From an uncultured Patescibacteria group bacterium (GTDB lineage: Bacteria; Patescibacteriota; Microgenomatia; UBA10105; UBA927), in assembly GCA_937921305.1 (NCBI GenBank), contig CAKZSU010000002.1, positions 1,711 to 65,710 of the forward strand: DNA of 64,000 nt, written 5' to 3'. The translations under genes and the position numbers were made by a program. Below, piece after piece: positions 7,852-29,712 of the stretch. A model generated the notes under the pieces. That model was not told the DNA's origin. It did no database searches and saw nothing but the letters and a program-made list of their open reading frames with translations. How positions within the stretch are numbered: the first letter of the stretch is position 1; every line of letters begins with the position of its first letter.

Positions 7852-7941
7852 CTGAAAACAGGTCGCATAATTGAACCATCAGGATATTCATTAGAATATT
7901 CATATTTTGGAATACCACGAAAACCGATATTTGAACAAACT

Positions 7942-8400: not shown

Positions 8401-8402
8401 AT

Positions 8403-8819: not shown

Positions 8820-9791
8820 TTATGAATGTATTGAGATTTTTTTCTCTTTCTCCTGTCGAATATTCATCGTCTCTTTCACAATATACCGAGGACGGCGTTT
8901 AACTTCCAAAAAAATTTTCGCGATATATTCTGCAATCACCGAGAGAGATAATAACTGTACACCACCTAAAAATAACACAAGCACAATAACGGTCGTAATC
9001 CCTGGCGCGGCTTTCCGATACCACACGCCCCACACAAGATTGATCATCAAAAATATGACAGAGAACAGTGTTACGATTCCTCCAAGATAAGAAATGAGTT
9101 GCAATGGTTTGAAAGAAAAATTCAGAATAATCGTTTTCGCCCAATACAATCCGCTTATAAAACTCTCGGTTGTCCTCCCATACGTTCTCGCCGCGCGAAC
9201 ATACGGAATGCCGATTTGTCGAAACCCAACAAACGCTCGCAAACACCGAAGATAATAATCATATTCTGGAATCGCGAGAAGTTCCTCTGCCACCCGTCTG
9301 CTTATCAGCGAAAACTCTCCCGCGTCCAACGGAATCTGAATATACGCAAGGTTTTTTAAGAGATAATAAAATGCGTGATAGTAAAAATTCCATAATCGAC
9401 CATATCCCTCTCGTCGTTCTCGAACCCCATAGACAACATCATATCCCTGCTCGTAATACGCAAGCATCTTTGGCAACAGTTCCGGCGGATCCTGAATATC
9501 GCCATGAAGAAGAAGGATTGCGTCGCCTGTCGCGTACTCGATACCAGCGAGGAAACTCGGCTGTGGAGACCCAAAGTTCCTGCTCATGAGAATCACTTTG
9601 ACTTGTTGATCGCGCTTCACAAGCTCTTTGTACACGCGAAGAGATCCGTCGGTGGACGCGTTGTCAACATAGAGTATCTCATACGTATACGATCGAAGAG
9701 TGAAAAAAACCCGACGAATACGATCGTACATTTCTTTGATATTCTCTTCTTCGTTGTAGCAGGTAACAACGACGGAAATTCGCTTTTTCAT
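8820..9791 (-). CDS. GT2 polyprenyl-phosphate sugar transferase (GtrB/CsbB/ArnC/DPM1-like) with C-terminal TM helices
   Basis: N-terminus ISVVVTCYNEEENI...YEILYVDNASTDGS carries the GT-A DXD signature. The C-terminal ~90 aa contain two hydrophobic helices, as in bactoprenol-phosphate glycosyltransferases. Confidence 0.8.
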   Translation of the reverse strand: MKKRISVVVTCYNEEENIKEMYDRIRRVFFTLRSYTYEILYVDNASTDGSLRVYKELVKRDQQVKVILMSRNFGSPQPSFLAGIEYATGDAILLLHGDIQDPPELLPKMLAYYEQGYDVVYGVRERREGYGRLWNFYYHAFYYLLKNLAYIQIPLDAGEFSLISRRVAEELLAIPEYDYYLRCLRAFVGFRQIGIPYVRAARTYGRTTESFISGLYWAKTIILNFSFKPLQLISYLGGIVTLFSVIFLMINLVWGVWYRKAAPGITTVIVLVLFLGGVQLLSLSVIAEYIAKIFLEVKRRPRYIVKETMNIRQEKEKKISIHS

Positions 9792-9800
9792 AATGTCTTT

Positions 9801-10952
9801 CTAGCGTCTCATCTCCTGAAGTATCGCGTTCAATGCCTTCCCAACAAAGAACACATCGCGTTTCGTCAGATTACCTGCTGACGGCAACGATATACCCTGA
9901 GCGGCGACGCGAGTCGCGACCGGATTTGGAAATCGCGATGGCGCGTAAAGCGGAAATTCGCTCATGCGAGGAAACGCCGGACGCGCGTGAATGTTTAACG
10001 CCTTGAGCTTTGCAAGAATCACATCTCGCTCTAATCGCATATGACGAGGAAGAAGCAATGACGGATAACAATAATTGCTTCGGACATCGCCTTGCTCCTC
10101 AAGAAGATCAATACCAGACACTCCATCCAACGCTTCTCGATACCACGAATGGATTTGTCGCTTTCTTGCTACCAATTCTTCAATCCGTTCAACTTGCGCC
10201 AACGCAAGAGAGGCAGTAAGATTGGCAATCGTGTATTGAAATCCTAACATATCGGACCAAAATACTGCCCTGCTATCCGTCCTTCCCATGCTCGCAAGAA
10301 GTTTCGCTTTCTTATAATATTCCTCATTATTTGTCACCAATATGCCTCCTTCTCCGCTTACCGCAATCTTCGCGCCATGAAAACTAAAGCATCCGATATC
10401 TCCAAATGTTCCAACATGTTTTCCTTTATAGGTCGATCCAAGTGCCGGCGCCGCGTCTTCGACAACCTTCAACTGATATTTCCTCGCGATTACCATAATC
10501 CTGTCCATATCGGAAGGGTGACCAAAGGTATGCACAAGCATGATCCCCTTTGTTTTTTTTGTAATTGCCCGTTCAATTGCGTCCGGATCAATACACCATG
10601 TCTTTGGATCGATATCTACAAATACTGGCGTCGCTCCTGTATAGGAAATCGCGTACGCGGTCGCGACCCACGAAAAATCTGTACAGATAACCTCATCGCC
10701 TTCTTTGAATCCTAGCGTTTCACAGGCGAGATGGAGCGCGAGCGTGCAACAATGGGTCGCGATTGCGTACCTTGCGCCAATATATTCGCAAACTGTTTGT
10801 TCGAGCTTTCGGACATGCTGATCAAAGGTTTCATAAAATCCATATAAAACGCCATCACGGACATACTGAACTTCTTTTTTTGTGATCCACGGACCGGCAA
10901 ATGCGATTTTCTTTTTGCTTGGTGAAAGACATCGACTGCCTCTTGATTTCAT
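9801..10952 (-). CDS. DegT/DnrJ/EryC1/StrS-family PLP-dependent sugar aminotransferase
   Basis: FSFHGAKIAVSGEGG has the PLP lysine in a typical context. Overall length 383 aa. Conserved DAA...G and GD(E)VI motifs. Confidence 0.85.
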   Translation of the reverse strand: MKSRGSRCLSPSKKKIAFAGPWITKKEVQYVRDGVLYGFYETFDQHVRKLEQTVCEYIGARYAIATHCCTLALHLACETLGFKEGDEVICTDFSWVATAYAISYTGATPVFVDIDPKTWCIDPDAIERAITKKTKGIMLVHTFGHPSDMDRIMVIARKYQLKVVEDAAPALGSTYKGKHVGTFGDIGCFSFHGAKIAVSGEGGILVTNNEEYYKKAKLLASMGRTDSRAVFWSDMLGFQYTIANLTASLALAQVERIEELVARKRQIHSWYREALDGVSGIDLLEEQGDVRSNYCYPSLLLPRHMRLERDVILAKLKALNIHARPAFPRMSEFPLYAPSRFPNPVATRVAAQGISLPSAGNLTKRDVFFVGKALNAILQEMRR

Positions 10953-11623
10953 GCAACCTCCTTTTTCATGTACACATGATACCTCGATATGTTCGGACCG
11001 TCATCTGTTTCACCCCACACGCCGCCATCGTCTGCTTGGTGAAACACCACAGGGACGCGACGCGTTTCCGAAAACCCTAATCGATAATATAACATCAACG
11101 CCTTACTGTTATCCGATGTTGTCTGTAAGGTAAACACGCGAATCGATAACACATGTTTTACCCACTCCATAAGCGTTTCAAGAGAAGCTTGCATGATCCC
11201 TTTCCGCCCCTCCTCGCCTCGCACAATATTGTCAAGATCAATGGACCGCTGATTCGGATCGTAACGAAACAATCCCACATGCCCGATATACCGATCATCA
11301 ACGCGAATCAAAAACAGTATGCGATCCCCCACATCAAGCACCCGCTCTTTAAGCCACGATCGCGTTCGTTCTTCTGTAACAGGAAAGATCGATGGAAACC
11401 ATCGTTCATGCGTTTTTCTCCATCGAGCAAGCAATCGAATAATCTCTTGATCGTTCAGACAATCATAGGTGACACACCATAAAGAAAATGGATTATTTTG
11501 AATCGTTCCGCGCAAGACATGGGAACCAAACGGCGATTGTTTCCATTCATGGAATATATCGATATGACGATCACTCATGCATTGCTTCATTTCTCTATTG
11601 GAGAGAAAAACATCTTCACGCAT
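10949..11623 (-). CDS. GNAT-family N-acetyltransferase (amino-sugar N-acetyltransferase candidate)
   Basis: Acetyl-CoA binding-like segment RGEEGRKGIMQASLETL and a C-terminal YYRLGF motif. Lies immediately downstream of the aminotransferase with a 4-nt overlap. Confidence 0.5.
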   Translation of the reverse strand: MREDVFLSNREMKQCMSDRHIDIFHEWKQSPFGSHVLRGTIQNNPFSLWCVTYDCLNDQEIIRLLARWRKTHERWFPSIFPVTEERTRSWLKERVLDVGDRILFLIRVDDRYIGHVGLFRYDPNQRSIDLDNIVRGEEGRKGIMQASLETLMEWVKHVLSIRVFTLQTTSDNSKALMLYYRLGFSETRRVPVVFHQADDGGVWGETDDGPNISRYHVYMKKEVA

Positions 11624-12114
11624 CGATCAATCCATAAGAAAAGCACGCACCCTCGCATCGCAAATGGTTTTATATAGACGACCCCATCGCGACGCAGCAG
11701 ACGCATCGAAACACATCGATCAAGATGTTGTTTAACAATAGCGCGCGGACGAAACGCGCAAGAGATCTCCGCGGCAGATCGTCCGTCTCTCCCCGCGTTG
11801 GCGATATAGGCGAGAAGACGAATCGTCAGCGATTCATTAAACACGCGGAACACAGTAAAAAGATATAGCGTAACGACTCCATGAAAGATCGCCTGAGATG
11901 CTACAGCGACAATAACCACGGTTTGCGGTGTCATCACATCAAGCATTCGCATCGCAATAAGCGATAACACCAACAAAAAACTAATAAACATCTGGAGCCA
12001 AAAACTAAACATCAATCGATGATGATCATCGACATAGCGAACAAATATAACCTGAATGAGCGCATACGCGATAGTGCCCACAAAAGAAAACGCCACAATA
12101 AAGATATCTATCAT
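11587..12114 (-). CDS. small membrane protein (4 TM) with C-terminal winged-helix-like segment; paralog of upstream gene
   Basis: Track ORF 11587..12240 trimmed to the internal ATG at 12114-12112. This ATG forms an ATGA overlap with the stop of the upstream gene. Four hydrophobic helices are followed by LTIRLLAYIAN...SAAEIS...RLLRRDGVVYIKP. Confidence 0.4.
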   Translation of the reverse strand: MIDIFIVAFSFVGTIAYALIQVIFVRYVDDHHRLMFSFWLQMFISFLLVLSLIAMRMLDVMTPQTVVIVAVASQAIFHGVVTLYLFTVFRVFNESLTIRLLAYIANAGRDGRSAAEISCAFRPRAIVKQHLDRCVSMRLLRRDGVVYIKPFAMRGCVLFLWIDRCVKMFFSPIEK

Positions 12115-12602
12115 ACTCGATTCTCCATACCGCACATCGTTCCGACAATATGAAACAACACATTCACTATCCTTCCTTTTAGCGTAGCGCGCCATCTCGA
12201 TTGCTTCTGCTCTATCAATCCCATAGCTTGCAAGGAACAAAGACGAGATGTAATCAATGCGTTTTTAGAAAGCTCTTTCAATATTTCCTCCTCCCGCAGA
12301 GACGACACACCGCGAAACATCGATACGATAAGAAAAAACACCGAGCGTCGTTGCGGAATATACAAGAGAGAAAACAGCGAAAAAAAGCATCCGACAATGC
12401 ATGAAACAACCAAAAGCGTAAACGGATATGCCGAATCGTATGGAATAATACTATTCCTCGCCACCAAATAGGGAAAAAGCGGTATATACATCAACCCCAA
12501 CAAAAACAAAAGAACCTTGTAACGAAACAATAGCCGATATGCAACCGCGTGAATACACAGTGTGGCAAATACCCATCCTGCGACAATCACGAGTCCTTCC
12601 AT
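12111..12602 (-). CDS. small membrane protein (3-4 TM) with C-terminal winged-helix-like segment
   Basis: Hydrophobic N-terminal two-thirds. The C-terminus EEEILKELSKNALITSRLCSLQAMGLIEQK resembles a wHTH. Confidence 0.4.
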   Translation of the reverse strand: MEGLVIVAGWVFATLCIHAVAYRLLFRYKVLLFLLGLMYIPLFPYLVARNSIIPYDSAYPFTLLVVSCIVGCFFSLFSLLYIPQRRSVFFLIVSMFRGVSSLREEEILKELSKNALITSRLCSLQAMGLIEQKQSRWRATLKGRIVNVLFHIVGTMCGMENRV

Positions 12603-12607
12603 GCTAT

Positions 12608-13621
12608 TTATGAAACCAATGAAAATATCACGGCATCTTTTTGAGATGTCAAGGGATTATTGTTCGAAAACATATATGATTCGTACCATGCGTAGACCGA
12701 TGAAGCCATGTCAGGAAGACGTTTCTTTGGGGTCCAACCGAGAATAGTCTTCGCCTTTTCATACGATAATGACTGCGCGGGTATTTCATGCGCCGCCGTA
12801 TTTTGTATCGTATATGAGATCGTTCTTTTTAACGCGTTTTCAAACACGCGAACCAAATCGAGAACCGAACACACATCATCGCTTCCAAAGTTAAACGCCT
12901 GTCCCTTTAGTTCCGACGCGCGCTCCGCGAGCATCAAGTACCCCTCCACCACATCCTTGACATACACATATGCGCGCGTGTGCTTCCCATTGCTTCGAAT
13001 GTGAAATGGTTCGTTGCGAAGGATAGAAAATATCATACCGGGAATAACGCGAGACGGATGAAGATCCCCTTCTCCATAAATATTCCCAAAACGGGTGATA
13101 ACAACAGGAAGATTATAGGTCTCTGCATAAGTTTGCGCGATCAAATCAGCCGACGACTTAGACACTTCATAGGGATGTTTGCCAACCAACGGATCGTCTT
13201 CTCTATATGGACGATCCAACCTCCCATATGCCTTGTCAGACGACGCGACAATCACACTCTCGATCCATGGCGATATTCTCACGGCCTCAAGCATGTTGAC
13301 TGTCCCAAGAATATTCGTCGCCAATGTTTCGCGGGGATTGACAAACGCGGGAACAACCAGCGGTTGCGCCGCAAGATGAAAGAGTATCGAAATTTCATTG
13401 GATGTCACGATATCAATCACGCGCTCCGCGTCTTTAACATCGCCAATCAGCATCGTTGTTTTTTTATGAAGACCCTGAGAAAAAAAATATCCCGCAGGAT
13501 ACGCGGTTCGCGTTAGAACAAACACATGCGCGCCCAACGCAACGAGCGCTTCCACAAGGTGGCTTCCTACAAACCCTGCTCCACCGGTCACCAACACACG
13601 TTTATGAGCGAAATATGACAT
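12608..13621 (-). CDS. NAD-dependent sugar-nucleotide 4,6-dehydratase (CDP-glucose 4,6-dehydratase-like SDR)
   Basis: N-terminal Rossmann motif VLVTGGAGFVGSHL and catalytic YEVSK (YxxxK). Sits adjacent to a glucose-1-phosphate cytidylyltransferase. Confidence 0.7.
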   Translation of the reverse strand: MSYFAHKRVLVTGGAGFVGSHLVEALVALGAHVFVLTRTAYPAGYFFSQGLHKKTTMLIGDVKDAERVIDIVTSNEISILFHLAAQPLVVPAFVNPRETLATNILGTVNMLEAVRISPWIESVIVASSDKAYGRLDRPYREDDPLVGKHPYEVSKSSADLIAQTYAETYNLPVVITRFGNIYGEGDLHPSRVIPGMIFSILRNEPFHIRSNGKHTRAYVYVKDVVEGYLMLAERASELKGQAFNFGSDDVCSVLDLVRVFENALKRTISYTIQNTAAHEIPAQSLSYEKAKTILGWTPKKRLPDMASSVYAWYESYMFSNNNPLTSQKDAVIFSLVS

Positions 13622-13624
13622 AGA

Positions 13625-14446
13625 CTACTTCCAAATCTTCCATGGAGCGTTTCCGCTCTCCCACAGAGCATTCAAATTTTGCACATCCACATAGGTGTCC
13701 ATGGCATGCCAAAATCCCTCATGAATGTATAAAGAAAGCTGTCGGTCGCGAATCAATCGCTTAATCGCTTCATGCTCCATCTCGCCATGACGAAGATACG
13801 AGAAAAACCGTTTATCAAACACCATGAACCCCCCATTCACCCAATCATTCTTTAACACAGGCTTTTCCACAAATCGTGTCACACGAAGCTGTTTGTCCAC
13901 ACGAACCATGCCGTACTTCGTTCGCGGATGAACGCCAGTGATCGTCCCTATTCTTCCTTGCGCTTTATGAAACGCGACAAGATTGGCGATATTGATATCG
14001 CTCACGCCATCGCCATAAGTTACCATAAACAAGTCATCGTTTTCTAGAATATATTCCTTCACGCGAAGAATTCGCTCGCCGGGCAATGTCTCCAACCCTG
14101 TATCAACAAAGGTGATGATAAAATCATCAATCCCGTCAGGTCCCGGCTTGTGAATCTTCTTCTTTCCTGTTTTTGTATGAATTGTAAAATCGTGAAGAAA
14201 ATACTGCTGATTTAAGAAATAATCTTTAATGTATTCTCCTTTGTATCCAAGAGCAATGATAAATTCGTTAAACCCATACGACGCGTAGATCTTCATAATA
14301 TGCCACAAGATCGGCTTATTTCCGATCGCGACCATCGGTTTTGGCTTGAATTCTGTTTCTTCTTTTAATCGATAGCCAATCCCGCCAGAAAGAATGATCG
14401 TTTTCATGCTGCCCCCTAATGAATCACACTTTGAATGGAGAATCAA
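13625..14446 (-). CDS. rfbF: glucose-1-phosphate cytidylyltransferase
   Basis: MKTIILSGGIGYRLKEETEFKPKPMVAIGNKPILWHIMKIYASYGFNEFIIALGYKG matches the RfbF N-terminus almost residue for residue. The true start is probably the internal ATG at 14407. Confidence 0.8.
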   Translation of the reverse strand: MILHSKCDSLGGSMKTIILSGGIGYRLKEETEFKPKPMVAIGNKPILWHIMKIYASYGFNEFIIALGYKGEYIKDYFLNQQYFLHDFTIHTKTGKKKIHKPGPDGIDDFIITFVDTGLETLPGERILRVKEYILENDDLFMVTYGDGVSDINIANLVAFHKAQGRIGTITGVHPRTKYGMVRVDKQLRVTRFVEKPVLKNDWVNGGFMVFDKRFFSYLRHGEMEHEAIKRLIRDRQLSLYIHEGFWHAMDTYVDVQNLNALWESGNAPWKIWK

Positions 14447-15372
14447 GAGGAAGATGAAACGCGAGCATATCGATTTCGTATTTCTTCGACAATCAGCGCT
14501 GGGGATACCCCATGCGCCTTACGAACATACGACTGCGTGCCAACGATATGAGAACTGTACGATCGAACGCCAACGCGATATAATGGAAACGCGATCTGAT
14601 GATCGGCAAAATACTCGGCAACGATCGTCCCAAGTCCTCCGTTTATCGCATGTTCCTCGATTGTCACAATCATCTTTTTTGTCTTGACGACTTCTTCCAA
14701 TAGATTGGTATCAAACGGAACAAGCGTATGCATGCTTACCACCATCGCGTAAATATGGTCATCCGCTAATCGACGCGCAACCTCTATCGCCACTTCAAGG
14801 ATGCTTGATGTGGAAAAGATCGCGATATCATCGCCGTCCTGAAGAATGTTCCCCTTTCCAAGTTCGACAGGGCGGGTTGTGTAGGTAGGCTCCCCTTTTT
14901 TCCCAAGACGAAGATAAACTGGCCCGAAGCGACGAAGCGCTTGACGCGTGAGTTCCCTCGCCTCCACAGGATCGCCAGGAGCAAGAATTGCAAGATTTGG
15001 CAATAACCGCATCATGCCAATATCTTCCAAGCTGTGATGCGAATACCCATATGGTCCATACGAAAACCCCGCCCCGACGCCGACAATCAACACCGGCAGG
15101 TTGTGATAGCAAATATCGTTCCGAAGCTGTTCGATATTTCGCATGGTAATGAACGGAATAATGGAATAAATGACAGGACGATACCCCTCAAATGCAAGCC
15201 CCGCGGCGATGCCCGTCATCGACTGTTCCATGATCCCGCAATTCAAATATTGATTAGGCAACTCTTCCTGAAATCGCTCAAATACCGAATATCCTAAATC
15301 TCCGGTCAGGAGCATAATCGATGGGTCTTTTTTCGCCTCCTCACGCAATACATCAGCGAACGCGTTTCTCAT
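14443..15372 (-). CDS. transketolase, C-terminal (pyrimidine-binding) subunit
   Basis: EQSMTGIAAGLAFEGYRPVIYS...PGDPVEARE pattern of split transketolase subunit B. Confidence 0.8.
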   Translation of the reverse strand: MRNAFADVLREEAKKDPSIMLLTGDLGYSVFERFQEELPNQYLNCGIMEQSMTGIAAGLAFEGYRPVIYSIIPFITMRNIEQLRNDICYHNLPVLIVGVGAGFSYGPYGYSHHSLEDIGMMRLLPNLAILAPGDPVEARELTRQALRRFGPVYLRLGKKGEPTYTTRPVELGKGNILQDGDDIAIFSTSSILEVAIEVARRLADDHIYAMVVSMHTLVPFDTNLLEEVVKTKKMIVTIEEHAINGGLGTIVAEYFADHQIAFPLYRVGVRSYSSHIVGTQSYVRKAHGVSPALIVEEIRNRYARVSSSS

Positions 15373-16198
15373 ATTCCTCCTTTGTAGGCGGCACGTATTG
15401 AGAAGAAACCTGATTCACATGTTGCGGCGGACCACCTTTTCCTTTGATTGTATTCGCAATGATGACAGAGGGTTTTCCCTTTTGAAATGGAATAATAGAA
15501 CATACGCGATGCAACGATCGAAACGAATGACCGTTACATGATCTCGCCGCCCATCCAAAACTTCGCCATTTTGCTCCAAACGGTTTCAAGGATATGACAT
15601 CGTCAACATACCCATACCCTTGCAGTCGATTGTAATCAATAATCACAACAAGATTCTCAAGCCCATGATGCGCTGCGAACAACGCGGATTCCCATGTTGT
15701 TCCTTCATCACACTCACCGTCAGAGAGAATCGCATATACCGCATGCGTTTTCCGTTGTTTTTTCCCTGCAAGCGCCATACCAACAGCAATTGGCAATCCA
15801 TGCCCAAGCGATCCTGACGACACCTCAATGCCCGGAACCGCGCCCCTCGTTGTGTGACCAGCCAGCGCTCCTCCATCCAATTCGTAACCATCAAGAAGCG
15901 ATGGATCAAAGAATCCTCGACGCGCAAGAATCGCATACAACGCTTTTGCATCGTGTCCTTTACTAAACACAAGCCGATCTCGTGACAGATCCAATGGTTT
16001 CTTTGGATCAATCCGCATACGGTAAAAATACAGATACACAAGAATCTCAACACACGAATACGCGCCGCCCGAATGCGCGCTTTGCGCCCGATACGCCATA
16101 CGAAAAATATCAGATCGAATTATTTTTGCTTGTTCTTTTAACTTCCTTAGCGTTTCATCATTCATATGGTATTGATTGGATTGTTCGCCAAGAAGCAT
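15353..16198 (-). CDS. transketolase, N-terminal (TPP-binding) subunit
   Basis: SKGHDAKALYAIL, GHTT...GIEVSSGSLGHGL, ILSDGECDEG and TPP-binding GDG-like motifs. Confidence 0.8.
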   Translation of the reverse strand: MLLGEQSNQYHMNDETLRKLKEQAKIIRSDIFRMAYRAQSAHSGGAYSCVEILVYLYFYRMRIDPKKPLDLSRDRLVFSKGHDAKALYAILARRGFFDPSLLDGYELDGGALAGHTTRGAVPGIEVSSGSLGHGLPIAVGMALAGKKQRKTHAVYAILSDGECDEGTTWESALFAAHHGLENLVVIIDYNRLQGYGYVDDVISLKPFGAKWRSFGWAARSCNGHSFRSLHRVCSIIPFQKGKPSVIIANTIKGKGGPPQHVNQVSSQYVPPTKEEYEKRVR

Positions 16199-17015: not shown

Positions 17016-17061
17016 ACGGTCTCTATTCTATATAAAAATGTAGTATCATACTATCGCATCT

Positions 17062-18045: not shown

Positions 18046-18046
18046 C

Positions 18047-18751: not shown

Positions 18752-18770
18752 TATATACTTACCCCTGCCT

Positions 18771-19808: not shown

Positions 19809-19850
19809 TCGGCTATTGGCAATCGGCAGTTGATTGTTAGGTGTAATCCT

Positions 19851-20483: not shown

Positions 20484-20496
20484 TTCCCTTCCTTTA

Positions 20497-21137: not shown

Positions 21138-21139
21138 CT

Positions 21140-22687
21140 ATGCATAAATTCTTGCTGTTTTTATTTCTCTCATTTGTTGGCACATCGTTGCTTGTCTATA
21201 TCTTCCAAACACGCCAATACCCTCAATGGGATGAACATCACTATCTTACGATCGCGGTAACAACACTTGACGACATCAAGGAACATGGCATCACCGGCAC
21301 ATTCTCGATTCTTGAAAACAGCGGTCATCGACAACCGATTTATCCACTCATCATCGCGACAATCCTACTCGTTACAGGAACAGATCATACCTATAAGATC
21401 GCGCTTGGCCTCAACGCGCTCCTCTTTTGTCTCACGATGATTGGAATTTATCGTATTGCTCGACGATGGCTTTCCAAAACAGCAAGCCTGTTCGCGGTAA
21501 TCACATTTGGAACCTATGGAAACGCACTCTTTTACGCGCATTTTACCTATGTCGAAACCGCGGTCACCGCGGCAATTGTCTGGGCGATCGTCGCGATTCA
21601 TAAAACACAGAAATTTGCAAACACCAAATGGAGTCTCGTCGCGGGGGCGATCGTTTCCGCCGCGACGCTCACGCGATTTATCGCGCCCGCGTTCCTTGCT
21701 GGACCAATCCTTGCGGAATTAATAACCTCGCGGAAACCGTCTCGCGTGTTTTTCAAAAACGCGGGACTCTTTCTTATCATCTCGATAGGATTGCCACTCA
21801 TACTCTACTTTATTCCCAACCGTGAACCATTTTTAGAGTATGTCCGCAACAATCAGACACTTGGACCAGAATGGGTTGCGCAGTATCGCGATCCAGCCAT
21901 GGCAAACATATTCTCCATACGATCGATTATGTATTACTTCAACATCCTACAACAAAACACGATCATTCCATTTCTTGCGTTTGTGTTTGGCATAATGATT
22001 CTGCTTTGGAATATTCCTCGAATCGTTTTAAGAGCATCGTCGAAATATCCTATTTCCATGATTGTGCATCTTCTCTTCTCATTTCTTTTTCCTTATGCGT
22101 TTCTTACTTTCATCACGATTTGGAAAGAGGATCGATTCATCGTTCCGCTCTACCCAACCATGGCGATTATTTCCGCTGTCTTTGTGGATTCGCTTCGCCG
22201 ATGGAGAATGATTCAAACACTTTGCATCACGCTTCTTGTCGGCGTGGGGTTCATGAATTTCTTTGGTGGGCTGTTTGGCATCGGACCAGCGGGACAACGC
22301 GGACTCGTGGATTACATCACGCCCCGATGGGTGCCTCACCCGCGACGAATCTATTTCACACCTCTTGTGTGGCCGCCAACAAAAGAATACACAAATGCGA
22401 GACTCGCCGCGACGATAATTCAAAATGATTGGCAAAATAAAGAACAGACAGACATTGGCATCACGTTTGACCATGAACCATTTATCAACGCGTTTTCTAG
22501 TCTTTTATGGTATGAACAACGAACGCTAGGAACGCTACATCTACAGGCAACAGAAGATATGGAATTTCTTGATTATCTATTCACACAACAGCCTGTTCGC
22601 CATGAAGAACGATGGAAACTCATCGCGACCATTCCGATACCATACGACAAGAGCGACGCCCTTCTCTATAGAAGAATTACTCAGTAA
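21140..22687 (+). CDS. GT-C fold glycosyltransferase, ArnT/PMT-like (GT39/GT83-like)
   Basis: TM1 is followed by PQWDEHHY, a DE motif in the first extracytoplasmic loop as in ArnT/PMT enzymes. Multiple further TM helices. 515 aa. Confidence 0.55.
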   Translation: MHKFLLFLFLSFVGTSLLVYIFQTRQYPQWDEHHYLTIAVTTLDDIKEHGITGTFSILENSGHRQPIYPLIIATILLVTGTDHTYKIALGLNALLFCLTMIGIYRIARRWLSKTASLFAVITFGTYGNALFYAHFTYVETAVTAAIVWAIVAIHKTQKFANTKWSLVAGAIVSAATLTRFIAPAFLAGPILAELITSRKPSRVFFKNAGLFLIISIGLPLILYFIPNREPFLEYVRNNQTLGPEWVAQYRDPAMANIFSIRSIMYYFNILQQNTIIPFLAFVFGIMILLWNIPRIVLRASSKYPISMIVHLLFSFLFPYAFLTFITIWKEDRFIVPLYPTMAIISAVFVDSLRRWRMIQTLCITLLVGVGFMNFFGGLFGIGPAGQRGLVDYITPRWVPHPRRIYFTPLVWPPTKEYTNARLAATIIQNDWQNKEQTDIGITFDHEPFINAFSSLLWYEQRTLGTLHLQATEDMEFLDYLFTQQPVRHEERWKLIATIPIPYDKSDALLYRRITQ

Positions 22688-24440: not shown

Positions 24441-24552
24441 TATGAAACTAGAAGAACGATATCTTTTCTCTAGTTCATCTGACTAATACTTTAATCCAAC
24501 GCGCATCTAGAAAAGAAAGAAAAAACACGATATAACAAATAATATTGATCTT

Positions 24553-25245
24553 ATGGAACATGAAGAACAAGAGATGAAATCGTTTCTCCGTGTTGGGGCG
24601 ATTGTCGCGATTTGTGTTGTTATCCTTCTTAGCGTTGTTTTTGTGTGGAACGCGTGGACCGTTCAACGAAACGGCAAGGTCGTCTTTCATGCGGGTGTCA
24701 CTTACACCGGACCAGATCAAAAACAACAGAAACAACTCCCGGAAAAATTTGCTGTCGATGATACAACGAAATGGATTAGAATAACTGGAAAGCTCTATCC
24801 GTACTCTTTTGAAGCTCCGGAAACGCTAACGCTTGTCCGATTTGACAACGACCCTTACGATATCTACGCGGTCTCGTACAACAATCAACCGCCAAGCTCC
24901 CACGTCCTCATCGGTGTTGATGATCTCTCGGCAAAAAAAGAACTCAAACAATACATTAAACAACCAAAAACAGTATATGTCCAAGAATGGTGGAAACACA
25001 TCGGCGGATTAAGCGGCATGTCGTCAATCACTCCATTCACAAACAGCAACGGATTAAAAGGATATCGCGCGAAATTTCTTCTCAAGAATGGAACACCAAC
25101 GCCATACGACGATGTATTCTTTGAAGTGCCGAAACGAAATGATCTTATAATCCATCTCTCGAACAACATTCTTGAATCAACAGTATTTGAACGCATTGTA
25201 GATTCACTCTCTTGGAGTTCTACTGCGTCAGGAATAACAAAATAG
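24553..25245 (+). CDS. hypothetical membrane-anchored exported protein
   Basis: Single N-terminal TM (AIVAICVVILLSVVFVW) followed by a hydrophilic domain. Confidence 0.35.
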   Translation: MEHEEQEMKSFLRVGAIVAICVVILLSVVFVWNAWTVQRNGKVVFHAGVTYTGPDQKQQKQLPEKFAVDDTTKWIRITGKLYPYSFEAPETLTLVRFDNDPYDIYAVSYNNQPPSSHVLIGVDDLSAKKELKQYIKQPKTVYVQEWWKHIGGLSGMSSITPFTNSNGLKGYRAKFLLKNGTPTPYDDVFFEVPKRNDLIIHLSNNILESTVFERIVDSLSWSSTASGITK

Positions 25246-25316
25246 CGTAAAAAGTTCCAATATGATTCTTATCTAAAAATCGACAATTTGCGATTGATAA
25301 TTGATCATCATGATTT

Positions 25317-27200
25317 ATGAGACTATTATTCATCACCATTGTCTTCATCCTCGGGTTGTTTATTCGATTATTTTTTGTTCCAAATCCTGGCTTTGAAGCA
25401 GATATCGCATTTTGGAAAGGATGGGGACTCGCGGCCGCTGACAATGGCGGACTGTGGGCAATACTTAACACAAATAATAATTACCCTACGCTATTTGTGT
25501 ACACGCTTGGCGCGATGGTTCATCTGTATCGTCTCCTCGGAGGCGAGCCTCACAATGTCCATTCATACTGGATGAATACGAATCTTCGATTTCTGTTTGT
25601 CTCAAAACTCCCCTCGATCCTCGCGGATGTTGGAATCGCGGGAATTATTCTCTATGTCGGCAAACGATTTAACCACCTCTTTTCATACACTTTTGTGAAT
25701 CAGAAACAGAGACAAAAACAAAAGAACCCTATCACCGCGCTTCTTGAATCTCAATGGCTCTTTCCTTTTCTCGCCGCACTGTATTTGCTCAACCCTGTAT
25801 CAATCATGGACGGCTCGTGGTGGGGGCAAGTAGATAGTCTTGGCGTTGCATACTTTCTCCTCGTTGTGATCGCCATCTTACATAAACGGATGATGCTCAC
25901 AGGAGCGCTGTTTATATTCGCGATGATGACAAAACTTCAAAATATGATTTATGGACCACTCTTGTTTGTGTTCATATGGCATACATTCGGTGTTCGCGCG
26001 ATGACAAAAACAATCGTCGGAGCGATCATCGCATTTTTTGGATTGAATATCGAATTTTTTCTCTCAAAAAACATGCACCTCGTCATAGGCTCGCTTATCA
26101 ATAATTATGATTACTTCCCGTATATGTCGTTGCACGCGTATAACCCGTGGTGGATTATTTCTGAAGGAAACGGCATGGGCGTGTCTGACAAATTTCTGGT
26201 TATTGGGATACTAAACGCAAAAACCGTGGGTACCATCATCTTCGCATCGTGCTACCTTGTTGCTGTCCTCGCGATAATTCTACCAACATTGCTCCGCATG
26301 AAGCAAAGAACTCCGAAAAATCAAACAGACGCTGACGAACGACAATCATTCTTTTGTTTTATTCTTGGCCTCTGCCTTGTGAATCTTGCGTTTTTCTTAT
26401 TTCTCACCCAATCACATGAACGATACGCCTTCCCCTTTTTTGGATTCAGTTTGCTCCTCGCGCCATTTCTTTCTCATCAACGCAAAATCGTCTTTCTTGT
26501 GTTGTATTGCGTATTTTCCTTCGTTTATTTTCTTAATCTCCACACCGCCTTCGCGCACAATTATCCAGAAAACGTCTTTCAATGGCTTCGATTTCTCGCT
26601 TCGTCCAGCTACACGAATCTTTTATCTTTCATAAATATAGCGATCTTTGCCATATTCATACTTCTCTTTGCAAACGACTTCACAAAGCACACCCTAGGAA
26701 TTGGTGTGATCGTATGTATTGGATTACTTCTCTTTGGAAATCATTCATATCTTCTTAGACAACCCATACATCTCTCCTCGATTACTCCATATCAAAGTTG
26801 GCAAGCGTATGGGGCGCGACAAACAAACATGCCTGTGTCTTCCTCTGGGTCAAATCCAAAGAGCTGGACGTTTCTCTCGACGCAATATGCATTCTTCCGA
26901 AAAGGCATTGGAACACACGCTAATAGCGCAATCTCATATGACATTGGAAAGAAATTCTCAATATTTCGAACAGACTATGGCATTGACACAAACGCAGGAA
27001 CTCAAGCATCCGCAATCTTCGAAATCTGGGGAGACGATAAGTTGCTCTTTCAGTCAGATGTCATGAGGCGATTCGACATGCCAAAACATGTAGTCATTAC
27101 TGTCAAGGGGATAAAGACACTCACACTTATCACGCGAGAAGCAAAAGACGGAAATACCGATGATCACACAAATTGGTTGAATCCTAAACTATATAGATAA
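25317..27200 (+). CDS. polytopic GT-C-like membrane protein with C-terminal NPCBM-like carbohydrate-binding domain
   Basis: N-terminal ~520 aa are multi-TM, with GFEADIAFWKGW after TM1. The C-terminal ~110 aa (GIGTHANSAISYDIGKKFSIFRTDYGIDTNAG...FEIWGDDKLLFQSDVM...VITVKGIKTLTLITREAKDGNTDDHTNWLNPKL) follow the NPCBM/F5-8-like pattern. Confidence 0.55.
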   Translation: MRLLFITIVFILGLFIRLFFVPNPGFEADIAFWKGWGLAAADNGGLWAILNTNNNYPTLFVYTLGAMVHLYRLLGGEPHNVHSYWMNTNLRFLFVSKLPSILADVGIAGIILYVGKRFNHLFSYTFVNQKQRQKQKNPITALLESQWLFPFLAALYLLNPVSIMDGSWWGQVDSLGVAYFLLVVIAILHKRMMLTGALFIFAMMTKLQNMIYGPLLFVFIWHTFGVRAMTKTIVGAIIAFFGLNIEFFLSKNMHLVIGSLINNYDYFPYMSLHAYNPWWIISEGNGMGVSDKFLVIGILNAKTVGTIIFASCYLVAVLAIILPTLLRMKQRTPKNQTDADERQSFFCFILGLCLVNLAFFLFLTQSHERYAFPFFGFSLLLAPFLSHQRKIVFLVLYCVFSFVYFLNLHTAFAHNYPENVFQWLRFLASSSYTNLLSFINIAIFAIFILLFANDFTKHTLGIGVIVCIGLLLFGNHSYLLRQPIHLSSITPYQSWQAYGARQTNMPVSSSGSNPKSWTFLSTQYAFFRKGIGTHANSAISYDIGKKFSIFRTDYGIDTNAGTQASAIFEIWGDDKLLFQSDVMRRFDMPKHVVITVKGIKTLTLITREAKDGNTDDHTNWLNPKLYR

Positions 27201-29668
27201 TGAAACACACCCACACAATCGAACCATCGCCACAAAAAACAAATCGTCGATTTCGCTCATTCTTTGAACACGGAATCGCATGGTTCATGCTTGCTTTTGC
27301 GATAGGCTTTAATCTCTGGATTTATCGTCTCGAACCAACAAGTGTCGTCGATCCAAACGACAATCCCTTTCAATACGCGCTCGTGGAACGAACCAATCAA
27401 ATCTGGGACTATGCGACAGAGACGTGCGGGATAAATCTTCTCTGTTTCACTGGCTATCTTCTCGATCACTGGGTGCCAAATTGGGCGCAAGGCTACAATC
27501 TGCCACATTATTACTCTCATCTTCCGCAAATCGCGATCGTGGCAAGTTATAGAATGCTCTCGGCGATCAGCAGTCAGCTGACTGTAATCAGCTTGTTTTC
27601 GTATTATCACATCGTCATCTATCTTCTTCTTTGCTTCTTCCCGCTTTCATTGTTTCTTGCATTCCGCATTATAAAAGCGCCTCCGATTATAGCCGGAAGC
27701 GCGGCGCTCATCGCCAGTCATATCTCAACCGATGGACTGTACGGCCTCGATCCATCGTCATTTCTCTGGCGAGGATATGGACTAACCAGTCAATTATTCG
27801 CCATGATCTGGATACCTCTTGCCATCGCGTCGGCGTATCGATTGTTCGTTAACGATACTGCGATTCGATATGCGTCAGTAAAATCATTTACTGCCTCCAT
27901 CGGCTCTCTTCCGTTTGTCAAAACGACAATATTCTTCCTTATTTTAACCATCAGCGGGCACCTTGGACTAGGTATCGTCACGATACTCTCTCTTGCAGTT
28001 CTTGCACTGACAAAACCAGTATTGGGCATTCTTTTGAAACAGTCATTCGGCGTAATCATTGCAAAAACACGAGATCAATTCCTGAAACTGTTGCTTGTCT
28101 ACGGATCGACGATATTTTTTCTTAGCTATTGGATTGTTCCCACGCTTTTGTATAAAGAGTATCACAACTATTCCTTCTGGGATCCGATATGGAAATTCAA
28201 CTCGTATGGCTGGAGACAGATTATGGAATGGTTTGTCAACGGCGACCTCTTTGACTTTGGACGAAGCATCCCAATCTTTACTATCCTTCTTCTTATTGGT
28301 GGCGCATCAGCGTTTCTTGCAAAGCTCCCCGAACAATCAAGCGAAAACCAAGAATCAATCGGTCGTCTCGCTCCATTCTCATTGCTCTTCTCGTTCTGGC
28401 TTCTCATGTTTTTTGGCAGAACCACATGGGGCGGACTCCTTGATCTCATCCCAAGCATGAAAGAATTTCACCAATCGCGATTCATCGTTGGCGTTCATCT
28501 CGCGGGATTGTTTCTCATTCCTTTTGGAATATGGATGATAAGCGACACGCTCGTAGCGATCTTCTATCGCGTCTTCTCAGGGATCAAAAATCGCCTTCCG
28601 GAACATATACATCCTGTCTTGTCAACTACGCTGATCATTGGCGTCACGATCACCATATGCGCGCTGTCCTATCCACAAACCATACGGTACGCGTCGCATA
28701 ACGATGTTTTGATTCGACAAGGCAACGCGAATGCAAAAAAACAAAAAGGGGATCTTGATCGTCTGATTACAGCACTCAAACAGTCTCCCTCGGGGAGAAC
28801 TTACCCGGGGAGAGGTGGATCGTGGGGGAAAAATCTCGTAATCGCGGAAACGCCTTATTACATGCATCTTTCAACCTACGGTATACCGGTTATTCTTTGG
28901 CTTCCTCAAACATGGTCGCCGAATTCCGATGTGGAGCAATTTTTTATCGAAGAATGGAAAGAACACTACAATCTTATGAATATCAATCGCGTCGTCACGC
29001 CGCCAAATCATACACCGATTCAACCCTTTTGGCAACTCAAAGAAAAAACTCCACAATGGGAGCTATACACAGTGGAAACGTCGGGATATATCGGAGCGGG
29101 AAGCCATGCCGCTGTTGTCTATAGTTCAAAATTTGATTTCATCAATCTCGTCCGTCTCTGGCTTCAATCTGATTATGTAAAACGAGGCATCGTTCCTCAA
29201 CTAACCTTTAATCGATCGGAGATGATAAACTCTCCCATTCCTGCATTCGAAATACTCGATGAAGCGACATATCGAACACGAGACGGAACTATCTATGGAC
29301 TTTTTCAAGAGCCTCCACGCTACGAAGCGCCTGAAGCAAAAATTGTGGTAAAAGAAGTTGCAACAAAAGCAGATATGGAATTTGTAGCAAACGCCACAAT
29401 CCGCGAACCATGTGAGCGATGCATCGTGTTTCTGAAACAAACGTTTCACCCAAATTGGCGCGTGTGGATCAACGGAAAAGGAACAGAGCCATTCATCAGT
29501 TTTCCTTTTTATATTGCGGTAAAACTAACGACGCCTGGTGATCATGAAATTGTCTTCAAGTATCAACCAGGCGCACTCAAGATGATGCTATTCACCTTTT
29601 CGTTTATGACAGGAGCACTTCTTGTTGTTTTTTTATTTATAAAATATGTTCGCGCCCGCATATCTTAA
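27200..29668 (+). CDS. YfhO-family large membrane protein (GT-C fold glycosyltransferase)
   Basis: 822 aa with many TM helices. The C-terminus FHPNWRVWINGKGTEPF...AVKLTTPGDHEIVFKYQP matches the characteristic YfhO C-terminal motif. Confidence 0.5.
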   Translation: MKHTHTIEPSPQKTNRRFRSFFEHGIAWFMLAFAIGFNLWIYRLEPTSVVDPNDNPFQYALVERTNQIWDYATETCGINLLCFTGYLLDHWVPNWAQGYNLPHYYSHLPQIAIVASYRMLSAISSQLTVISLFSYYHIVIYLLLCFFPLSLFLAFRIIKAPPIIAGSAALIASHISTDGLYGLDPSSFLWRGYGLTSQLFAMIWIPLAIASAYRLFVNDTAIRYASVKSFTASIGSLPFVKTTIFFLILTISGHLGLGIVTILSLAVLALTKPVLGILLKQSFGVIIAKTRDQFLKLLLVYGSTIFFLSYWIVPTLLYKEYHNYSFWDPIWKFNSYGWRQIMEWFVNGDLFDFGRSIPIFTILLLIGGASAFLAKLPEQSSENQESIGRLAPFSLLFSFWLLMFFGRTTWGGLLDLIPSMKEFHQSRFIVGVHLAGLFLIPFGIWMISDTLVAIFYRVFSGIKNRLPEHIHPVLSTTLIIGVTITICALSYPQTIRYASHNDVLIRQGNANAKKQKGDLDRLITALKQSPSGRTYPGRGGSWGKNLVIAETPYYMHLSTYGIPVILWLPQTWSPNSDVEQFFIEEWKEHYNLMNINRVVTPPNHTPIQPFWQLKEKTPQWELYTVETSGYIGAGSHAAVVYSSKFDFINLVRLWLQSDYVKRGIVPQLTFNRSEMINSPIPAFEILDEATYRTRDGTIYGLFQEPPRYEAPEAKIVVKEVATKADMEFVANATIREPCERCIVFLKQTFHPNWRVWINGKGTEPFISFPFYIAVKLTTPGDHEIVFKYQPGALKMMLFTFSFMTGALLVVFLFIKYVRARIS

Positions 29669-29712
29669 TTTCTCAAAACCTGGCCTTACAATAAAATTCA
29701 TCTCAGCTCAAC

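Follow-up and report, generated by a model that had tools for sequence, protein, structure and literature searches.

Two systems in which a GT2 works with a polytopic GT-C serve as functional precedents here: CsbB with YfhO, which acts on lipoteichoic acid (PMC5836110), and PgfS with PgfM1 (PMC12041528). PgfM1, PgfM2, and PgtC2 are GT-Cs with a YfhO domain, and their targets are Ser/Thr-rich disordered regions (PMC12041528). The lipid A-modifying Arn pathway (aminotransferase ArnB, GT2 ArnC, flippase ArnE/F, and GT-C ArnT), the mycobacterial and corynebacterial envelope-assembly set (the GT2 Ppm1 with the GT-Cs PimE, Pmt, AftA/B/D, and Emb), and the oligosaccharyltransferases STT3, AglB, and PglB offer further points of comparison. 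We examined positions 8820-29668 of a 64,000-nucleotide window (the whole stretch of DNA analyzed) from an uncultivated, Gottesmanbacteria-like Patescibacteria genome. An earlier note had read this block as one glycosylation system following the logic of CsbB-YfhO and ArnC-ArnT. The logic, in which a GT2 of the GtrB/CsbB/ArnC type charges polyprenyl phosphate with a sugar that GT-Cs pass on outside the membrane, stood, as a full-length GtrB-family GT2 and four GT-C or GT-C-like proteins are present; the single system did not, and the block is better described as two modules side by side.

Genes of the block lie on both strands in four or more transcription units, with small intergenic gaps (Table 1). 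The minus-strand sugar operon has 10 genes (8820-17015) that overlap or lie no more than 10 bp apart, from an RmlD-like gene at its start to a GtrB-type GT2 at its end. A plus-strand unit opens with an extended SDR, closes with a PMT_2-type GT-C, and holds a second GT2. Scans of the locus for promoters and terminators gave matches at chance level or were uninformative. Every gene named in the earlier note was an intact ORF at the coordinates given there, and the families of the sugar genes are backed by Pfam or NCBIfam matches, but its list omitted the second GT2, the SDR ahead of it, two 3-TM proteins (11587-12602), a frameshifted deoxynucleoside kinase (dNK), and a 230-aa protein.

Table 1. 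Features of the block and of a syntenic region outside it
Feature	Coordinates	Strand	Evidence
GtrB/ArnC/PgfS-type GT2, polyprenyl-phosphate glycosyltransferase, 323 aa	8820-9791	-	PF00535, 113 bits
DegT-family sugar aminotransferase, 383 aa	9801-10952	-	PF01041, 344 bits
GNAT N-acyltransferase, 224 aa	10949-11623	-	PF13302, PF00583
Small membrane protein, 175 aa from ATG at 12114	11587-12114	-	Hydropathy, sequence: 3 TM
Small membrane protein, 163 aa	12111-12602	-	Hydropathy: 3 TM
CDP-glucose 4,6-dehydratase-like SDR, 337 aa	12608-13621	-	TIGR02622
Glucose-1-phosphate cytidylyltransferase, 273 aa	13625-14446	-	TIGR02623
Split transketolase, C-terminal (pyrimidine-binding) subunit, 309 aa	14443-15372	-	PF02779, 120 bits; PF02780, 80 bits
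Split transketolase, N-terminal (ThDP-binding) subunit, 281 aa	15353-16198	-	PF00456, 115 bits
RmlD-like NDP-4-ketohexose reductase, 285 aa	16158-17015	-	PF04321, 127.7 bits; TIGR01214, 129.7 bits
Extended SDR, NDP-sugar 4,6-dehydratase or epimerase type (LegB-like), 327 aa	17062-18045	+	PF16363, 188 bits
Second GT2, polyprenyl-phosphate glycosyltransferase type (ArnC/AglJ/Dpm1-like), 247 aa	18008-18751	+	PF00535, 78 bits
ATP-grasp ligase, PylC-like, 345 aa	18771-19808	+	PF21360, 41 bits; PRK12767 family, 78.6 bits
HAD-family phosphatase, 217 aa	19830-20483	+	PF13419, PF00702
dNK, frameshifted	20497-21137	+	Two ORFs matching two halves of PF01712
GT-C, PMT_2/ArnT-like, 515 aa	21140-22687	+	PF13231 (PMT_2), 38.4 bits; PF03901 (GT22), 29.3 bits
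GT-C-fold membrane protein, 587 aa	22677-24440	-	Confident structure model
Conserved protein, 230 aa	24553-25245	+	Hydropathy: one N-terminal TM anchor, extracytoplasmic domain
GT-C with C-terminal CBM51/NPCBM, 627 aa	25317-27200	+	GT-C fold (model), residues about 1-480
YfhO-like GT-C candidate, 822 aa	27200-29668	+	Homologues matching PF09586; architecture
Small conserved single-TM protein, 97 aa	29713-30006	+	Hydropathy
DUF2298 protein	38501-40840	-	PF10060, 305 bits; ~12 TM
546-aa polytopic protein	40881-42521	+	~7 TM
593-aa polytopic protein	42518-44299	+	~11 TM

The GtrB-type GT2 is a full-length family member with two C-terminal TM helices by hydropathy (residues 232-250 and 268-286), in agreement with the earlier assignment, and with a DIQDPPE motif at residue 98. 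Its top named NCBIfam model was PgfS (251.6 bits, half of the equivalog cutoff of 500), and ArnC gave 135 bits, likewise below its cutoff; both alignments were full-length. In the PDB, it aligned end-to-end with solved GtrB (5ekp, 209.5 bits) and with ArnC (134 bits). Two features are shared with the three-component systems of B. subtilis and Listeria (the GT2 CsbB/GtlA, the flippase GtcA, and the GT-C YfhO/GtlB): a GT2 of the GT-A kind carrying a pair of C-terminal TM helices, and a YfhO-type GT-C whose last TM helix follows a large extracytoplasmic region. The csbB-yfhO-like gene arrangement was not borne out, however: the GT2 and YfhO-like genes lie 17 kb apart in separate transcription units, and no flippase of the GtrA/GtcA/ArnEF type was detected among the ORFs scanned. 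The host is a Patescibacterium rather than a member of the Firmicutes, and the donor pathway would be CDP-based, not supplied by UDP-GlcNAc or UDP-Glc. The S. mutans Pgf system (PgfS, PgfE, PgfM1, and PgfM2, alongside GtrB/PgtC2) resembles the locus in that an epimerase/SDR gene accompanies a GT2, which in Pgf serves several YfhO-type GT-Cs, whereas here the gene order differs, YfhO likeness is confined to a single GT-C of the four, and no long Ser/Thr-rich acceptor was obvious among the translated ORFs of the block. With Arn, the locus has in common a DegT aminotransferase adjoining an ArnC-like GT2, a predicted 4-amino sugar N-acylated ahead of lipid-carrier loading, and an ArnT-like PMT_2 GT-C nearby; it differs in its likely precursor (CDP-glucose, not UDP-glucuronate), in acylation by a GNAT rather than a formyltransferase, in lacking ArnD and ArnE/F, and in a host lineage without lipid A. 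The mycobacterial and corynebacterial set shows no sequence-level orthology and belongs to a different envelope type; here the carbohydrate-binding module is a CBM51, and the GT-Cs are clustered rather than dispersed.

The remaining genes of the minus-strand operon suggest what the GT2 may load. The cytidylyltransferase aligned over its full length to TIGR02623 (286.6 bits, below the cutoff of 300.25), and TIGR02622 was the best SDR model for the dehydratase-like protein (211 bits, below the cutoff of 278); orthologues in locus L005, a Beckwithbacteria MAG, are 62% and 50% identical, respectively. The DegT protein matched the LegC family (310 bits) and PseC (250 bits) in NCBIfam, with 7b0m, a sugar aminotransferase (250 bits), and 3bn1, a perosamine synthetase (234 bits), as closest solved structures, and is most like C4 aminotransferases for NDP-4-keto-6-deoxyhexoses. 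The GNAT probably acylates the amino sugar. The GT2, DegT, and GNAT also stand together, at ~60% identity, in two unrelated loci (L005 and L012) whose polytopic partners differ from those here; in both, 59%-identical DegT orthologues adjoin the GT2, and GNAT and DegT are fused (590 aa and 603 aa, respectively). This supports the proposed tie between the GT2 and amino-sugar genes. Both small membrane proteins have C-terminal tails resembling a winged helix; neither matched Pfam or NCBIfam, and they share no BLASTP similarity with each other. The 175-aa protein was not found in L005 or L012 and is, speculatively, a flippase or regulator candidate. Overall, the operon probably makes a rare CDP-sugar that the GtrB-type GT2 moves to a lipid carrier. 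To our knowledge, the characterized GtrB-family enzymes (GtrB, CsbB, PgfS, and ArnC) use UDP-sugars, and a CDP-sugar donor would be without precedent.

Branching of the sugar is harder to judge. Some C-branched deoxysugar pathways use ThDP enzymes, such as YerE in CDP-yersiniose and AviB1/B2-type split E1-like enzymes, and there, as here, CDP-glucose and CDP-4-keto-6-deoxyglucose enzymes accompany the ThDP enzyme. At this locus, in contrast, that enzyme is of the split-transketolase type, with amination and N-acylation added; we found no characterized sugar-branching precedent for a split transketolase in the searchable literature. It would be either a C2-branching enzyme acting on a keto-sugar or else a housekeeping transketolase. 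Since the latter could hold, the "complete" CDP-amino, branched-sugar route claimed previously, whose genes are all present, is a single route only as far as we infer it.

In the plus-strand unit, the SDR scored 179.7 bits against TIGR04180 (LegB), below the cutoff of 475. The second GT2 has no TM helices by hydropathy; its best NCBIfam matches were ArnC, AglJ, dolichyl-P-hexose transferase, and PpgS, and its best PDB matches were ArnC (58 bits, residues 15-234). It is encoded in one unit with the PMT_2 GT-C and is a more likely source of donors for the conserved core than the GtrB-type GT2; short GT2s also lie within about 10 kb of that core in L009, L010, and L011. The ATP-grasp protein, which had no PDB match by sequence, probably performs an amide-forming tailoring step; a 68% identical orthologue is kept beside the core in L009. 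The HAD phosphatase has an L004/L009 orthologue at 43% identity. The dNK, intact in L004 (210 aa), is probably a bystander outside the glycosylation system, and with its broken copy inside this unit, function cannot be read strictly from adjacency at this locus.

The four polytopic proteins each show roughly 8-11 hydropathy peaks and invariant acidic residues directly after TM1, and the evidence supports all four as GT-C or GT-C-like, as the earlier note had it. They are not the paralogs it described, as neither BLASTP nor hhalign found mutual similarity and four unrelated families are represented. HMM searches succeeded for the 515-aa protein, which exceeded both Pfam cutoffs (26.1 for PF13231 and 23.8 for PF03901), but gave no direct Pfam match for the 587- and 822-aa proteins. 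The 515-aa protein has 8 TM helices, the first of them followed by a WDEHH motif. For the 587- and 627-aa proteins, predicted structures point to a GT-C fold. Neither a Pfam model nor a source name exists for the family of the 587-aa protein, which counts 2,590 or more clusters at 50% identity. The small C-terminal alpha/beta domain of the protein resembles the oligosaccharyltransferase C-terminal core; unlike STT3, AglB, and PglB, however, the family lacks the WWDYG motif (0 of 50 members), the protein matched neither PF02516 nor, by sequence, any PDB entry, and ALG12, AftA, and Pmt2 scored similarly in structure comparison. The modeled 627-aa protein falls closest to the ALG3/ALG6/GPI-MT-I/PimE structural class, enzymes whose donors are all polyprenyl-phosphate-monosaccharides. 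The 822-aa protein is too divergent for PF09586, with no direct Pfam match even at E ≤ 10, and its YfhO likeness comes through homologues, 19 of 50 of which match PF09586 (best E, 9e-9), one 65% identical homologue carrying the NCBI name "YfhO family protein." It has an invariant D51-P-N-D54-N after TM1, and its N-terminal TM bundle, extracytoplasmic region of ~300 aa, and last C-terminal TM helix match the architecture described for B. subtilis YfhO (PMC5836110).

Gene order within the core (515/587/230/627/822/97) is kept, at identities as low as 45%, in L004/L009, L010, and L011, where it lies beside LysM-M23, Rho, and DUF2298 genes and the CDP-sugar genes are missing. Orthologues of the 515-aa protein are 43-48% identical in L004 and L010. 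The 230-aa protein, without a Pfam or NCBIfam match, is always encoded between the 587- and 627-aa genes (42-63% identity in L004, L010, and L011), and in the same three loci the 97-aa gene is likewise placed downstream of the YfhO-like gene. Homologues of the 822-aa protein often have a longest contig of equal length to that of homologues of the 587-aa protein (at least 17 pairs) and the 627-aa protein (at least 24 pairs), and one further pairing of core-protein homologues bears the neighboring NCBI locus tags A2Z33_03805 and A2Z33_03810. Of the co-occurrence expected earlier, the core and the GT2-DegT-GNAT set each recur in the loci compared, but not the two modules together. By these comparisons, module A (about 21.1-30.0 kb) appears lineage-conserved and module B (8.8-17.0 kb) strain-variable. 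Separately, three further polytopic proteins outside the block (38501-44299) stay syntenic with the core, with L004 orthologues at 53-61% identity; they are candidates for additional GT-C-like enzymes.

We give a probability of about 0.6 to a conserved GT-C core joined by a strain-variable CDP-sugar operon with lipid-carrier loading. It is improbable that the whole 21 kb is one system in which a GtrB-like GT2 puts a single CDP-amino (branched) sugar on the lipid carrier and four acceptor-specific GT-C paralogs distribute it: contiguity with small gaps, the GtrB-type GT2, and four GT-C-like proteins would fit, but L009, L010, and L011 hold the core without the CDP-sugar/PgfS-like module, which sits elsewhere beside different polytopic proteins, the GT-Cs lack sequence or profile similarity to one another, the genes fall into several units on both strands, and a second GT2 shares the unit of one GT-C. 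Only a little less unlikely is that the operon supplies cytoplasmic (Leloir) polysaccharide synthesis of the conventional kind, with the GT2 using an ordinary UDP-hexose or UDP-HexNAc unconnected with the CDP-sugar and the transketolase serving the pentose-phosphate pathway. The UDP-sugar donors noted above favor this, as do the nearest solved structure of the transketolase N-subunit, a genuine metabolic split-chain transketolase (6yak, 203 bits), and L012, which has a GT1 and a pair of ABC-2 transporter genes near its module and no CDP-glucose genes in the 7 kb available upstream. Yet the GT2 adjoins DegT/GNAT in three independent loci, both transketolase genes overlap their neighbors inside the sugar operon, and L005 has, within the same module, a non-homologous ThDP enzyme of YerE architecture (TPP_enzyme_N/M/C, 615 aa) between its CDP-dehydratase and aminotransferases, which argues for a sugar-specific ThDP step.

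A role of the core mainly in protein O-glycosylation, like Streptococcus Pgf/PgtC2 or actinobacterial Ppm1/Pmt, rather than in building or decorating a wall glycopolymer is the least doubtful of the alternatives, though we lean against it. The PgfS match, the Ser/Thr-rich targets of the YfhO-domain GT-Cs of Pgf, and the PMT_2 GT-C sharing a unit with a Dpm1/Ppm1-like short GT2 all point that way; against it stand the CBM51 fused to the 627-aa GT-C, which indicates a carbohydrate acceptor, the action of YfhO on lipoteichoic acid, and the lack of an obvious Ser/Thr-rich acceptor in the block.

Under the two-module reading, the GT-Cs of module A would work at the outer membrane face, transferring single sugars from polyprenyl-phosphate-sugar donors to surface acceptors; as a guess, the CBM51-fused enzyme may act on a glycan, and the PMT_2 and YfhO-type enzymes on proteins or a teichoic-acid-like polymer. 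The two GT2s, TM-less and GtrB-type, would supply these donors from the cytoplasmic side. Module B would convert Glc-1-P to CDP-glucose and CDP-4-keto-6-deoxyglucose, followed by C4 amination (DegT) and N-acylation (GNAT), while the keto-sugar intermediate, in the main or a parallel branch, may be C-branched by the ThDP enzyme and reduced by the RmlD-like protein. The GtrB-type GT2 would put the finished sugar on the lipid carrier, in parallel to ArnB/ArnC. Gene identities, folds, and synteny are seen directly; we infer which nucleotide the donor of this GT2 carries, how the sugar is built, and what serves as flippase and as acceptors. Judged from its genes, this Patescibacterium appears to use an already known glycosylation strategy with components that are partly new.

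The 21 kb block resolved into four tightly packed transcription units by ORF listing, Pfam, and NCBIfam (see table). These analyses confirmed the coordinates and labels of the genes named in the earlier note and added genes absent from it: a second GT2, an extra SDR, two small membrane proteins, a 230-aa protein, and a broken deoxynucleoside kinase. A megablast search of the block against PLSDB plasmids gave no match. The count of sigma-70 promoters equaled the shuffle expectation, and terminator-like sites were mostly intragenic and uninformative. GC skew was negative over almost the whole window (1–64000), at about −0.06 to −0.20, whatever the coding strand.

Transcription units of the block and other features of the window and of related loci (positions are those of the window unless a relative is named)
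Feature	Coordinates	Strand	Content
Unit i	17015 to 8820	−	Ten genes, overlapping or with gaps ≤10 bp, in order: RmlD-like reductase, split transketolase N and C subunits, Glc-1-P cytidylyltransferase, CDP-glucose 4,6-dehydratase-like SDR, two small 3-TM proteins without family, GNAT, DegT aminotransferase, 323-aa GT2
GtrB-type GT2	8820–9791	−	323 aa, last gene of unit i
Tandem small proteins	11587–12602	−	Each with three TM helices and a winged-helix-like C-terminal tail, within the sugar operon
Unit ii	17062 to 22687	+	LegB-like SDR, 247-aa GT2, PylC-like ATP-grasp, HAD phosphatase, frameshifted deoxynucleoside kinase, 515-aa PMT_2 GT-C
Short GT2	18008–18751	+	247 aa
Split deoxynucleoside kinase	20497–21137	+	Two ORFs
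Unit iii	24440 to 22677	−	Single gene, 587-aa polytopic protein
Unit iv	24553 to 30006	+	230-aa single-TM protein, 627-aa polytopic protein with C-terminal NPCBM, 822-aa polytopic protein, 97-aa single-TM protein
YfhO-like gene	27200–29668	+	822 aa
Genes without assigned function	31565–36672		738, 257, and 571 aa
Further polytopic proteins	4320–5828, 38501–40840, 40881–42521, 42518–44299		~8, 12, 7, and 11 TM helices, respectively
GCA_044223895.1 (L004/L009)			Gene order: ATP-grasp, HAD, intact deoxynucleoside kinase, PMT_2, 587-aa homologue, 230-aa homologue, GT-C-CBM51, YfhO-like, 97-aa homologue, then LysM-M23, Rho, DUF2298, two more polytopic proteins
Distant 587-aa paralogs	L009 14045–15652; L011 18987–20612		24–27% identity, E 1e-14 and 2e-4
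Beckwithbacteria MAG locus (L005)	3963–8645		ThDP enzyme (615 aa), class I/II aminotransferase, and GNAT and DegT as one 590-aa fusion
Metagenome contig locus (L012)	198–2094 and 11251–13644		Aldolase/dehydrogenase pair; radical-SAM/SPASM-GT2 fusion

The earlier note had read the GT2 at the end of the minus-strand operon as GtrB/CsbB-like with C-terminal TM helices, and this assignment held. The protein has an N-terminal GT-A (GT2) catalytic domain (PF00535, 113 bits, residues 6–171) carrying a DIQDPPE motif, and hydropathy peaks at 232–250 and 268–286 correspond to two C-terminal TM helices, likewise found in its L005 and L012 orthologues. It aligned end to end with the solved Synechocystis GtrB (5ekp; 209.5 bits, residues 5–310 against 28–331) and with solved ArnC (134 bits), and the NCBIfam PgfS model matched at 251.6 bits over 4–308 of 308. 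As the NCBIfam PgfS and ArnC scores both lie below their equivalog cutoffs, they place the protein within the family and do not establish orthology. Judged by sequence, the 323-aa protein is a genuine GtrB-family polyprenyl-phosphate glycosyltransferase and the orthologue of no named enzyme. TM helices are absent from the 247-aa GT2, which likewise matches polyprenyl-phosphate transferases best (ArnC, AglJ, a dolichyl-P-hexose transferase, and PpgS). In the CsbB/YfhO system, YfhO is co-transcribed with a CsbB-type GT2, whereas here neither GT2 is co-transcribed with the YfhO-like gene, one lying on the opposite strand and the other in a separate unit.

Within the sugar operon, the best-scoring NCBIfam models for two enzymes were Glc-1-P cytidylyltransferase (286.6 bits, cutoff 300.25) and CDP-glucose 4,6-dehydratase (211 bits, cutoff 278.45), both aligned over their full length. 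The DegT protein is closest to perosamine synthetase-type enzymes, and the split transketolase is most similar to genuine split transketolase; nothing relevant tying a transketolase to CDP-sugar or branched-sugar pathways was found in the literature. The ATP-grasp protein had no useful PDB sequence or profile match. No GtrA/GtcA- or ArnE/F-type flippase was present among ORFs of ≥80 aa at 6.8–33.8 kb, where the sole small polytopic proteins are the tandem 3-TM pair. These two match no family (a Pfam search at E ≤ 10 yielded no meaningful hit); BLASTP found no similarity between them, and both lack a counterpart in L005 and L012. In the plus-strand unit, the deoxynucleoside kinase gene is interrupted by a 1-nt frameshift near 20783–20790 (…QDVY / SYGKAQYELGNMD…). 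This split structure is common to three assemblies of the organism, and the relative L004 has an uninterrupted gene of 210 aa.

The four large membrane proteins had been described as a run of GT-C paralogs. All four have invariant acidic residues directly after TM1. They share no mutual BLASTP or profile-profile (hhalign) similarity and so represent four separate GT-C families; the interpretation of the earlier note was supported in part, in the general lipid-carrier-dependent strategy and not in the paralogy. The 515-aa protein matched PMT_2 (PF13231, 38.4 bits, cutoff 26.1) and PF03901 (29.3, cutoff 23.8), with no PDB sequence match. The 627-aa protein has a fold of the GT87/ALG3-PimE class; no Pfam family, PF09594 included, meaningfully matched its residues 1–480 at E ≤ 10, and PF09594 is carried by 4 of 120 homologues, several of which bear the JGI name “Gpi18-like mannosyltransferase.” Its C-terminus (residues ~490–627) is a CBM51/NPCBM domain by both HMM and fold match. 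For the 822-aa protein, there was no direct Pfam match even at E ≤ 10 and no useful PDB sequence or profile match for the family, while 19 of 50 homologues (44–65% identity) matched PF09586 (best E 9.3e-9) and the 65%-identical homologue is named “YfhO family protein” at NCBI. Its TM peaks span 137–491, residues 492–795 form a hydrophilic region of ~300 aa, and the last TM helix is at 796–814; this is the layout of YfhO, a TM bundle followed by a large loop and a final helix, and the B. subtilis protein has 13 TM helices with a loop of 389 aa (PMC5836110). A product 100% identical to the 822-aa protein is encoded on the ENA metagenome contigs ERZ6863697 and ERZ6864144 (88 and 108 kb). Homologues of the 822-aa protein that carry an organism name belong to “Patescibacteria group bacterium” or Candidatus Gottesmanbacteria, which places the window in an uncultivated bacterium of the candidate phyla radiation, within Microgenomates. 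A literature search for Patescibacteria and GT-C enzymes found nothing on the lineage.

The 587-aa protein is predicted to adopt the GT-C membrane fold in a model built from a 50-sequence alignment (pLDDT 88, pTM 0.90), and E58 and D66 in its first extracytoplasmic loop are invariant across those sequences. A Pfam search at E ≤ 10 had no meaningful hit to the protein, no Pfam family was found in it, its 120 listed homologues, or 10 distant relatives, and sequence and profile searches of the PDB found no relative of the family. Clustered at 50% identity, the family amounts to 4,381 clusters when the limit is E ≤ 1e-3 and to 2,590 when it is E ≤ 1e-10, and none of the sampled members is named. 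Both the membrane domain and the C-terminal domain of the protein are similar to those of STT3/AglB. An identity as an STT3/AglB/PglB oligosaccharyltransferase was rejected, and it is not filed as one, because the WWDYG motif is missing in all 50 sequences: W[WYF]D[YFWN]G or WWD occurred in none of them, and the equivalent position reads SSWxWxKDFxDHK. Distant paralogs lie in L009 and L011, and the 587-aa family has therefore been duplicated within these genomes.

Gene order was compared with that of related genomes. The GT-C core is lineage-conserved. The assembly GCA_044223895.1 (YfhO-like protein 57% identical) has the core genes in the same order as the window; L010 and L011 (45–62% identity) keep the 587/230/627/822/97 core with different GT2s and further polytopic proteins in the flanks, among them a 326-aa GT2 ending in two TM helices and a short GT2 that adjoins a PMT_2 gene in L011. 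Homologues of the 822-, 587-, and 627-aa proteins repeatedly agree in the length of the longest contig, and two have adjacent NCBI locus tags. The sugar genes did not share this conservation, contrary to the single coupled system that the earlier note had proposed: upstream in GCA_044223895.1, where the window has the CDP-sugar operon, there are an epimerase, a methyltransferase-GT2 fusion, and another GT2.

Beyond the block, the three genes without assigned function have lower GC (0.37) and reversed GC skew. They are missing in L004/L009 and L011, where LysM-M23 directly abuts Rho, and look like a recent insertion. The four further polytopic proteins include one DUF2298 protein and three without a Pfam family (502, 546, and 593 aa); neither for these three nor for the 230-aa protein of unit iv did Pfam at E ≤ 10 yield a meaningful match. 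In all but the 546-aa protein, where none is evident, TM1 is followed by acidic motifs, and the three right-hand genes are syntenic with the GT-C core in L004. These four may be further GT-C-like enzymes.

A search for the GtrB-type GT2 in genome contigs and in metagenome contigs found one close relative in each, in the Beckwithbacteria MAG (59%) and one metagenome contig (60%), so that co-occurrence of the sugar module is based on three loci in total. A fused GNAT-DegT protein adjoins the GT2 in both relatives, and the Beckwithbacteria locus also has cytidylyltransferase (62%), CDP-dehydratase (50%), and ATP-grasp genes. Between its CDP-dehydratase and GNAT-DegT fusion lie a class I/II aminotransferase and a 615-aa acetolactate-synthase/YerE-type ThDP enzyme, the latter a non-homologous replacement for the split transketolase of the window. 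In the metagenome contig, a DmpG/DmpF-like aldolase and acetaldehyde dehydrogenase pair stands beside the fusion, and a 797-aa radical-SAM/SPASM-GT2 fusion adjoins a GT1 and an ABC-2 transporter pair. The polytopic neighbors of the GT2 in these two loci are homologous to no membrane protein of the window. As the core is kept in relatives and the sugar module occurs elsewhere with unrelated polytopic proteins, the module stands apart from the core as a mobile or variable unit.

From these genes, we can postulate a route. The minus-strand operon would make CDP-glucose and from it CDP-4-keto-6-deoxyglucose, which DegT would aminate at C4, given its closeness to perosamine synthetase-type enzymes, and the GNAT would then N-acylate the amino sugar, as its fusion to DegT elsewhere suggests. 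The ThDP enzyme and the RmlD-like reductase may, in addition, branch and reduce a keto-sugar intermediate. The operon-terminal GT2 would load the product onto polyprenyl phosphate, a parallel to the cooperating pair ArnB and ArnC. The weakest points of this route are the donor nucleotide of that GT2, the part played by the transketolase, and the small number of loci (three) behind the sugar module. For the conserved GT-Cs, the donor is probably a commoner polyprenyl-P-hexose made by the short GT2. Donors of that type are used by all of the nearest structural matches to the 627-aa enzyme. As acceptor, CBM51 suggests a glycan, and analogies with PgfS, YfhO, and PMT_2 allow proteins or teichoic-acid-like polymers.

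Two bolder readings follow. A CDP-sugar-dependent GtrB-type enzyme is possible in the window; it would be the first polyprenyl-phosphate glycosyltransferase to take a CDP-linked donor, here a 4-acetamido-4,6-dideoxyhexose, possibly C-branched by the split transketolase, and, if true, the surface of this candidate-phylum bacterium would bear a rare sugar that is new. The 587-aa protein, in turn, would found a GT-C family with thousands of members, as a core envelope enzyme of Microgenomates; its resemblance to STT3/AglB in both domains means that it could be oligosaccharyltransferase-like with a non-canonical acceptor motif. These readings are unlikely, with a probability we put at roughly one in five.

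Patescibacteria are abundant, mostly uncultivated, and often attached to other cells, and to our knowledge almost nothing about their surface chemistry has been established experimentally. The locus offers a concrete, testable parts list: four different conserved GT-Cs lie beside Rho and a LysM-M23 wall hydrolase, and the variable sugar operon belongs to the type that makes surfaces diverse, much like the decoration of O-antigen or teichoic acid. Among the GT-Cs are a member of a large family that Pfam does not model (2,590 clusters or more at 50% identity) and an enzyme fused to CBM51, and the recurrent grouping of GtrB-type GT2, DegT, and GNAT hints at an unusual donor sugar. Collectively, these data do not overturn current ideas; they extend the three-component model of lipid-carrier-dependent glycosylation to a further lineage, in which some of the components are new.
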